A stretch of 41,053 nt of DNA from a virus (taxonomy: Duplodnaviria; Heunggongvirae; Uroviricota; Caudoviricetes), in IMG/VR virus record IMGVR_UViG_2617270962_000012, positions 1-41,053 of that record. The stretch is one strand, 5' to 3'. How positions within the stretch are numbered: position 1 is the first letter of the stretch; the number at the start of each line of letters is the position of its first letter. A model generated the notes under the pieces. It did no database searches, was not told the origin of the DNA, and saw nothing but the letters and a program-made list of their open reading frames with translations. A program made the translations under genes and the position numbers. Of this stretch, positions 6,550-7,971 are shown one piece after another.

Positions 6550-7480
6550 ATTAACCGGCTATGTATGGGATGGTTGCGCTGCGTCAGGCATGAAGTTATC
6601 CAGCGTGGCAATTATGGCCCGCCTGGCTGATTTCAGTAATGACGAAGGTGTGTGCTGGCCATCAATTGAAACCATTGCCCGCCAGATTGGCGCGGGGATG
6701 AGCACCGTCAGAACGGCTATCGCACGGCTGGAAGCAGAAGGCTGGTTAACGCGTAAGGCGCGTCGCCAGGGTAACCGCAATGCGTCGAATGTTTATCAGC
6801 TTAACGTTGCGAAGCTTCAGGCAGCGGCATTTTCTCAACTGTCAGATTCTGACCCGTCAAAATCTGACGCATCAAAATCTGACCCGTCAAAATTTGATGC
6901 GTCGAAATCTGGCAAAAAAGCGGGTTTTCACCCGTCAGAATCTGGCGGGGATCCGTCAGTAAAATCAAAACATGATCCGTCAGATAAAAAACCTTCTCGT
7001 CCGGACGCTTCGCAACCGGACACGCAGACGGCTGAACAGGATTTTTTAACTCGCCATCCTGATGCGGTTGTATTCAGCCCTAAAAAGCGCCAGTGGGGGA
7101 CGAAGGATGATTTGACCTGCGCACAGTGGCTCTGGAAAAAAATCATCGCCCTGTACGAGCAGGCTGCCGAATGTGACGGCGAGGTGGTTCGTCCCAAAGA
7201 ACCGAACTGGACAGCCTGGGCAAACGAAATTCGCCTGATGTGTGTACAGGATGGGCGTACTCACAAACAAATCTGCGAGATGTACAGCCGCGTCAGCCGC
7301 GATCCGTTCTGGTGCCGTAACGTGCTCAGCCCGTCGAAGCTGCGGGAAAAATGGGATGAGCTTTCCCTGCGCTTATCGCCGTCCGTCAGCACGTACACCG
7401 AAAAACGCGAGGACCCGTACTTCAAAGCCAGTTACGACAACGTGGACTACAGCCAGATCCCGACAGGATTCAGAGGGTGA
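6539..7480 (+). CDS. replication initiator (lambda O-like) with internal iterons
   Basis: N-terminal HTH-like region, repeat-encoded 'SDSDPSKSDASKSDPSKFDASKS' linker, position after cII-like gene. Confidence 0.6.
   Translation: MSTKLTGYVWDGCAASGMKLSSVAIMARLADFSNDEGVCWPSIETIARQIGAGMSTVRTAIARLEAEGWLTRKARRQGNRNASNVYQLNVAKLQAAAFSQLSDSDPSKSDASKSDPSKFDASKSGKKAGFHPSESGGDPSVKSKHDPSDKKPSRPDASQPDTQTAEQDFLTRHPDAVVFSPKKRQWGTKDDLTCAQWLWKKIIALYEQAAECDGEVVRPKEPNWTAWANEIRLMCVQDGRTHKQICEMYSRVSRDPFWCRNVLSPSKLREKWDELSLRLSPSVSTYTEKREDPYFKASYDNVDYSQIPTGFRG
6838..6990 (+). repeat. iteron array (candidate origin of replication) inside the initiator gene
   Basis: About seven direct repeats of the 'ccgtca(a/g)aatctg' type. 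Confidence 0.55.
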
Positions 7481-7971
7481 TCATGAGTCTGTTAAATGAC
7501 GTTCAGAAATTCATTGAAGCCCATCCGGGGTGTACTTCCGGAGACATTGCGGATGCTTTTGCAGGTTACTCACGGCAGCGCGTTCTGCAGTCTGCAAGCA
7601 AGTTACGTCAGAGTGGGCGTGTGGCTCACCGTTGTGAAGGAGATACACGCAGACATTTCCCGCGCCTGACTGAGAGAGCGCAGGAACCGGAACCACAACC
7701 AGTTCGAGAAACCAGACCTGTGCGCAATTTCTATGTCGGCACTAACGATCCACGGGTGATTTTGTGCCTGACCCGCCAGGCTGAAGAACTGGAGTCCAGG
7801 GGCTTATACCGTCGTGCTGCAACCGTGTGGATGGCGGCATTCCGTGAAAGCCACTCCCAGCCAGAACGAAACAATTTTCTGGCGCGTCGTGAGCTGTGTT
7901 TACGGAAAAGCAGCAAGCGCGCTGTATCGAGTGATGAGTGGTATCTGTCAGGGAATTACGTGGGGGCGTAA
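7477..7971 (+). CDS. PerC-family transcriptional regulator-like protein
   Basis: C-terminal 'AEELESRGLYRRAATVWMAAFRES...ERNNFLARRELCL' resembles the PerC/Pch core as I recall it; N-terminal extension of unknown function. Confidence 0.45.
   Translation: MIMSLLNDVQKFIEAHPGCTSGDIADAFAGYSRQRVLQSASKLRQSGRVAHRCEGDTRRHFPRLTERAQEPEPQPVRETRPVRNFYVGTNDPRVILCLTRQAEELESRGLYRRAATVWMAAFRESHSQPERNNFLARRELCLRKSSKRAVSSDEWYLSGNYVGA

Follow-up and report, generated by a model that had tools for sequence, protein, structure and literature searches.

Pch proteins of the PerC family activate LEE1 only under silencing by H-NS, StpA, and Hha, and they lower the H-NS occupancy (PMC4764244). The ANR proteins, including Aar, contact both AraC-type activators and H-NS by protein-to-protein interaction (PMC4983702; PMC5570504), and the ANR signature consists of the residues A10, E14, A22, W26, A29, W43, and R47 (PMC4983702). 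EcCIMP1_025, a PerC-like protein carried by a PICI, represses LEE1, and its authors remarked on the link to the ANR family (PMC11773190). The characterized relatives of the YfdN C-terminal domain act by contact with other regulators or nucleoid proteins, the domain having no classical DNA-binding motif through which it works.

The yfdN gene was named "the K12 unique PerC homologue" and was deleted before the Pch proteins were tested on ler::lacZ (PMC5931665). The literature yielded no study on the function of YfdN itself. The phenotypes found were one match in an over-expression screen (glycogen content) and membership of a multi-gene fragment causing filamentation; there were no others. An RNA-seq table for CFT073 that lists yfdN was left out of the evidence. 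Here we have analyzed yfdN in a 41,053-nucleotide stretch of DNA from a virus of the Caudoviricetes (IMG/VR record IMGVR_UViG_2617270962_000012), which is referred to as the window. The analysis adds to the family assignment a winged-helix module, an operon coupling that argues against expression in stable lysogens, and evidence that the gene is accessory to replication.

Identity, Start Codon, and Distribution of yfdN

The open reading frame at positions 7477–7971 on the plus strand was found to be yfdN of the CPS-53 prophage of K-12. E. coli copies with 100% DNA identity are labeled "yfdN: PerC family transcriptional regulator" in RefSeq. With this name and the published status as a K-12 homologue, the family assignment was therefore already known; the PerC-family label is public in RefSeq, PHROGs, and the literature, and the resemblance is real but ordinary.

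The RefSeq/PGAP form of the gene has a GTG start, encodes 164 amino acids, and ends with a TAA stop codon at 7969–7971. The likelier start is the ATG at position 7483 (plus strand), giving a 162-aa product. A Shine-Dalgarno-like GAGGG at 7473–7477 (plus strand) is located five nucleotides before this ATG, and nearly all YfdN homologues were found to open with MSL when aligned. From the spacing of the GAGGG and the MSL starts of the homologues, the 162-aa form is therefore likelier than the 164-aa form. The GAGGG lies within the last codons of the preceding replication initiator gene, rep, which fits a translational coupling of rep and yfdN, and the same arrangement of the junction recurs in related loci. 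Small open reading frames in other frames within 7477–7971 had no support and were set aside.

About half of the complete E. coli genomes (2674 of 5426) carry yfdN, with up to four copies per genome. It was also found in 49 phage records with 95–99% identity, including SfII, SfIV, SfV, mEp460, and Stx2c- and Stx2a-converting phages. The sb43 gene of Salmonella phage ST64B is a 64%-identical version, and its annotation points to K-12 b2357/P76510. The hosts of yfdN comprise commensal and K-12 E. coli, Salmonella, Citrobacter, and Hafnia, and the majority of them do not have LEE.

Organization of the Early Region

The window is a prophage, and the order of its early region is gene-for-gene that of the icd-site prophage of E. 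coli strain 1190. A gene for an S24-type repressor on the minus strand (4628–5302) is followed by a cro-like gene, a CII-like gene (5625–6194), a DUF4222 gene, and rep (6539–7480, plus strand). The TGA stop codon of rep (7478–7480) overlaps the annotated GTG of yfdN (GTGA), and the stop codon of yfdN overlaps the ATG of the gene that follows (TAATG). The latter, located at 7971–8297 on the plus strand, encodes 108 amino acids with a LexA-type DNA-binding domain only; beyond it are genes for RusA, a KilA-N protein, a DUF968 protein, and Q. The early-region location given in the preliminary description was thus correct, and yfdN is placed in the early-right region between the lambda O-like replication gene and the gene for the Q antiterminator.

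No promoter-like site was found on the plus strand between approximately 5400 (the cro region) and 8684, and no terminator-like site was found on this strand within rep, yfdN, or the LexA-like gene. The overlapping gene ends and the lack of a promoter-like site upstream therefore place yfdN inside an operon downstream of the S24-type repressor/cro-like pair. Since no promoter-like site is located directly upstream, the prophage repressor would probably keep yfdN silent in a lysogen, and the overlap of the gene ends suggests that yfdN is translationally coupled to the replication gene. Judged from this arrangement, yfdN should be expressed on induction and not in stable lysogeny.

The block of rep, yfdN, an optional methylase gene, the LexA-type gene, RusA, DUF968, and Q was found to recur in relatives down to approximately 28–35% identity. 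A scan of genome contigs returned six loci only. The LexA-type gene, which is translationally coupled to yfdN through the TAATG overlap, was kept in the same block in distant relatives. Its product matched Pfam LexA_DNA_bind with 69 bits, had no S24 domain or peptidase part, and could bind LexA-type operators as a non-cleavable protein.

Elsewhere in the window, a YafO-type toxin gene (557–1012) is located near the left end and an N6/N4 DNA methylase gene (11858–12907) downstream of Q. Two minus-strand open reading frames of 208 and 117 amino acids at 14346–15366, in a patch of 40% GC between the lysis and packaging regions, had no match in Pfam or PADLOC and are possibly unannotated cargo. 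An AT-rich island (34000–37800, GC 30–39%) contains an Acyl_transf_3 gene (35030–36094, minus strand), which is probably an O-antigen or surface-modification cargo gene. It adjoins an IS110-family transposase gene (36601–37794), and an integrase gene follows at 38456–39550. In one of the related loci (L010), an Acyl_transf_3 gene comes directly after a distant YfdN-like gene.

YfdN Combines a Winged Helix With a PerC/ANR-Type Domain

A search of 1.8 billion cluster representatives gave 97 relatives of YfdN, of which about 20 were full-length two-domain proteins of 140–165 amino acids with 25–47% identity. An AlphaFold2 model built on the alignment of YfdN relatives had a mean pLDDT of 80. The N-terminal domain (aa 1–62 of the 162-aa form; 7483–7668, plus strand) was modeled as a confident winged helix with three helices and a beta-hairpin wing, and has a pI of 9.8. 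It is followed by a Pro/Glu-rich linker (aa 63–88; 7669–7746, plus strand) that is predicted to be disordered, with a pLDDT below 50 at aa 64–78; its columns in the alignment of relatives are gapped and unconserved, and its length varies among homologues. The C-terminal domain (aa 89–145; 7747–7917, plus strand) was modeled with confidence as a three-helix, TPR-like fold. The TPR-like fold is a typical protein- or peptide-binding scaffold, although the similarity is low in specificity for a helical domain of 60 residues.

The N-terminal part of YfdN from the window had no match in Pfam, and MarR_2, Penicillinase_R, or HTH_24 matched this part in just two to three of 32 relatives. Profile matches of the winged helix to the PDB had E-values of 0.0015–0.02, and a viral fold library gave generic winged-helix matches only. 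The winged-helix matches are structural and generic, and those to DNA-binding families at the sequence level fall below the cut-offs. Winged helices can bind proteins as well.

The protein ends in a tail (aa 146–162; 7918–7968, plus strand) with the conserved motif W-Y-L-x-G-x-Y-V-G, which is not found in EPEC PerC. The tail is predicted to be disordered and its pLDDT was low, yet the motif is kept down to approximately 25% identity, and the columns L, G, Y, V, and G are invariant or nearly so across the YfdN alignment. The tail looks like a short docking motif. It is loosely similar to the G-aromatic-x-G end of the tail of the replication initiator.

The Pfam PerC profile (PF06069) matched aa 100–154 of YfdN with 38.9 bits and an E-value of 1.1e-9 (curated gathering score, 22.6), and the PerC resemblance first noted for the C-terminal half from the letters alone was hereby confirmed. 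Positions 5–59 of the 90 positions in the profile were covered, while the last third (60–90) was unmatched. The same profile matched all of 32 diverse family members, down to approximately 25% identity. By BLASTP, YfdN was found to be 32% identical over 56 amino acids to the founding PerC of EPEC (E 4e-8), here the pMAR7 protein encoded beside perA and perB, and the aligned proteins have the motif A..LE.kG.YRRAA..W...R..C in common. On these scores the PerC resemblance of YfdN is well beyond chance. PHROG 1324 ("transcriptional activator") spans the whole of YfdN (2e-77), and other, separate PHROGs span only its N-terminal or only its C-terminal half.

PerC proteins typically have the size of a single domain (about 90–105 aa), whereas YfdN has 162–164 amino acids with the winged helix and linker in addition. 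The suggestion that the N-terminus has no PerC counterpart was borne out, but this part comprises approximately 95 amino acids and not approximately 70. Searches by sequence gave no solved-structure relatives of the PerC domain.

With the ANR model (NCBIfam NF033650), YfdN scored 24.7 bits, which is below the cut-off of 32. The ANR pattern A-x3-E-x7-A-x3-W-x2-A is nevertheless matched exactly at aa 100–119 of the 162-aa form. R-x3-C is present too, with a loop that is two residues shorter than in ANR proteins and no Trp at the W43 position. No AraC-type gene, as would be expected for an AraC/XylS-family partner, was found in the early region, where the neighbors of yfdN encode the O-like initiator and the LexA-type protein. 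Judged by profile and direct similarity, YfdN is a member of the PerC family with an atypical architecture.

Possible Functions of YfdN

The reading that we favor, with somewhat less than even confidence, is that YfdN is an accessory regulator of the early-right (replication-to-Q) operon of lambdoid-type temperate phages, combining a winged helix with a TPR-like PerC/ANR domain. The basic winged helix, of the MarR/BlaI/PapI type, would most simply be a DNA-binding or DNA-tethering domain. When the prophage repressor is inactivated, YfdN would be made together with the replication protein through translational coupling. The PerC/ANR domain could then be placed beside a nucleoid-associated silencer or activator, or titrate it, and the outcome would be an altered transcription of phage and/or host DNA. 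After induction, YfdN may have an effect on host gene regulation. DNA binding by the winged helix is inferred, as are the targets, the protein that YfdN would contact, and whether it activates or represses. Against a regulator, the very constant site of the gene, next in line after that for the initiator, could point to a function in replication instead of transcription.

It is unlikely that YfdN is a regulator of lysogenic conversion that, made from a resident prophage in the manner of PchA-C, turns on host virulence genes or other chromosomal loci. YfdN does belong to the PerC family, the prophage-encoded PchA-C activate LEE while curli and flagella are altered by PchE (PMC5931665; PMC6265319; PMC7369912), and the glycogen screen did score yfdN when over-expressed. 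However, the gene is situated inside a repressor-controlled early operon and has no promoter-like site of its own, and the coupling of prophage carriage to host gene regulation proposed in the preliminary description fits this position poorly. It is found in approximately half of the complete E. coli genomes, K-12 and commensals included, and in LEE-negative genera. In K-12, which carries yfdN, the LEE1 promoter of EHEC is active only when pch is supplied (PMC4764244). Strong activation of ler was obtained with group 1 Pch only, with PchD and PchE barely activating (PMC5931665), and the PICI PerC-like protein does not activate but represses LEE (PMC11773190). The published Pch and PICI tests, together with the frequent occurrence of yfdN in commensals, K-12, and LEE-negative genera, argue against a role as virulence regulator.

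The product of rep was found by Pfam and BLASTP to be chimeric, with an HTH_36 N-terminal domain, a repeat-encoded linker, a C-terminal domain resembling that of lambda O, and a tail ending in DYSQIPTGFRG. The match of the C-terminal domain to lambda O had an E-value of 7e-26 by BLASTP and was also supported by tblastn against phages. In lambda O, the C-terminal domain is the P-binding domain. No P homologue was found in the window, and P proteins gave no notable BLASTP or tblastn match to YfdN or to the window. Because of the lambda-O C-terminal domain upstream and the lack of P in the window, we pursued the idea that YfdN takes the place which P has next to O in lambda. As a replication accessory, YfdN would be an adaptor between the O-like initiator (perhaps via the DYSxIPxGFRG tail) and the host helicase or its loader, or it would bind the origin via its winged helix.

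Within rep, a 15-bp unit (TCTGACCCGTCAAAA) is repeated 4.3 times in tandem at positions 6848–6911, and the repeats encode the linker DPSKSDASKSD. By comparison with lambda O, the repeats are probably the iterons of the origin. The last 15 codons of rep (7433–7477) encode the tail (V)DYSxIPxGFRG, which was also found in loci L002, L003, L006, L008, and L016. Its conservation is one of protein sequence, since the codons differ by synonymous changes, and it extends to initiators with otherwise unrelated C-terminal domains; lambda O does not have the tail. It is retained in phages Kp4871-1 and cdtI, both without an intact yfdN. Related loci were found to reshuffle the N- and C-terminal domains of the initiator independently.

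Several of these observations favor a replication accessory: the true lambda-O C-terminal domain of the upstream initiator, the lack of a P homologue, the probable origin iterons inside rep, and a related Proteus phage in which P comes after an O-like gene that has no such tail. In addition, rep followed by yfdN with overlapping ends recurs in relatives with 28–47% identity, and yfdN-like genes follow initiators of three different domain combinations. These are the same N-terminal domain with a Phg_2220_C C-terminal domain, a different N-terminal domain with the same O-like C-terminal domain, and further variants. However, the Klebsiella phage Kp4871-1 (a record marked unverified) has the same type of initiator with the tail and a methylase gene directly after it, with no yfdN. 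In phage cdtI, termed an inducible lambdoid prophage in the title of the paper describing it, the initiator and tail are kept and yfdN is cut to its first 26 codons. One initiator C-terminal domain with approximately 89% identity over its last 150 amino acids is found with a YfdN of just 46% identity, so the two do not co-vary tightly. Distant two-domain relatives of YfdN are located after RecT or in an AlpA-type element and not after rep. YfdN has no similarity to P, and its C-terminal domain belongs to a regulator family.

We consequently regard a replication accessory as distinctly unlikely, and YfdN as an analogue of P was largely rejected on the basis of Kp4871-1, cdtI, and the lack of tight co-variation with the initiator C-terminal domain. 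As both phages keep rep without a full yfdN, the gene looks accessory. The two genomes argue against an essential role in replication, and yfdN is best seen as a dispensable accessory gene with a conserved position, comparable to the nin-region genes of lambda.

We give a still lower probability to a reading in which YfdN-type proteins form a distinct, DNA-tethered branch of the PerC/ANR proteins that links replication initiation to counter-silencing in O-type phages without P. The winged helix could here set the TPR-like capture domain at phage sites such as the origin in rep or the AT-rich acyltransferase island, where YfdN could evict H-NS-type silencers or dock on the conserved tail of the O-like initiator. 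Least probable of all is a lambda Ren-type function in exclusion or anti-defence, for which yfdN has the map position of ren as first gene after the replication genes and its N-terminal domain a weak match to PHROG 142 (Ren-like exclusion proteins; E 0.011), but the comparison with lambda Ren by hhalign was not significant (probability 14%), the weak match is explained by a generic winged-helix resemblance, and PADLOC gave no defence-model match of note. Ren-like exclusion was rejected on the failed profile comparison, and membership of a defence system was rejected since PADLOC returned nothing meaningful.

The function of yfdN concerns a very common prophage gene that is also found in serotype-converting and Stx2c phages. 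If YfdN turned out to counter silencing at targeted DNA sites, or to partner with the O-like initiator, this would reveal a role of the PerC/ANR helical domain outside virulence regulation, and it would help explain the early program of lambdoid phages that have an O-type initiator and no P. PerC-family matches in the early regions of prophages should not be taken as virulence regulators by default.

Comparison With Known Systems

In lambda, P follows O with overlapping ends, as yfdN follows the gene for its O-type initiator, but the sequences of the two proteins are dissimilar. Lambda ren resembles yfdN in being the first gene of the nin-type region, with no significant similarity between the proteins.

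Among the regulators, the PerC-like proteins of PICIs, such as EcCIMP1_025, are like YfdN members of the PerC family on a phage-related element. They are short, single-domain proteins on satellites, whereas yfdN belongs to the replication operon of a phage. The ANR proteins (Aar, Rnr, and Cnr) have three predicted helices, as does the domain in YfdN, and the signature residues A, E, A, W, A, R, and C are all found in YfdN with identical spacing for the first five; W43 of the ANR proteins is not conserved. They are smaller than 10 kDa and accompany genes of the AraC family, whereas yfdN has no AraC neighbor and encodes an extra winged helix.

PerC of the EPEC EAF plasmid and PchA-C of EHEC prophages have a helical core homologous to that of YfdN and are likewise carried by mobile elements in Enterobacteriaceae. 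The pch genes belong to the cargo of prophage-like elements and target LEE, whereas yfdN is located in a replication/nin-type early operon in hosts that are mostly LEE-negative; YfdN has no reported activity on LEE1. Finally, PerC and Pch consist of a single domain (89 and about 104 aa, respectively), and YfdN differs from them in its C-terminal tail, WYLSGNYVG, and in the addition of a 62-aa winged helix and a linker.
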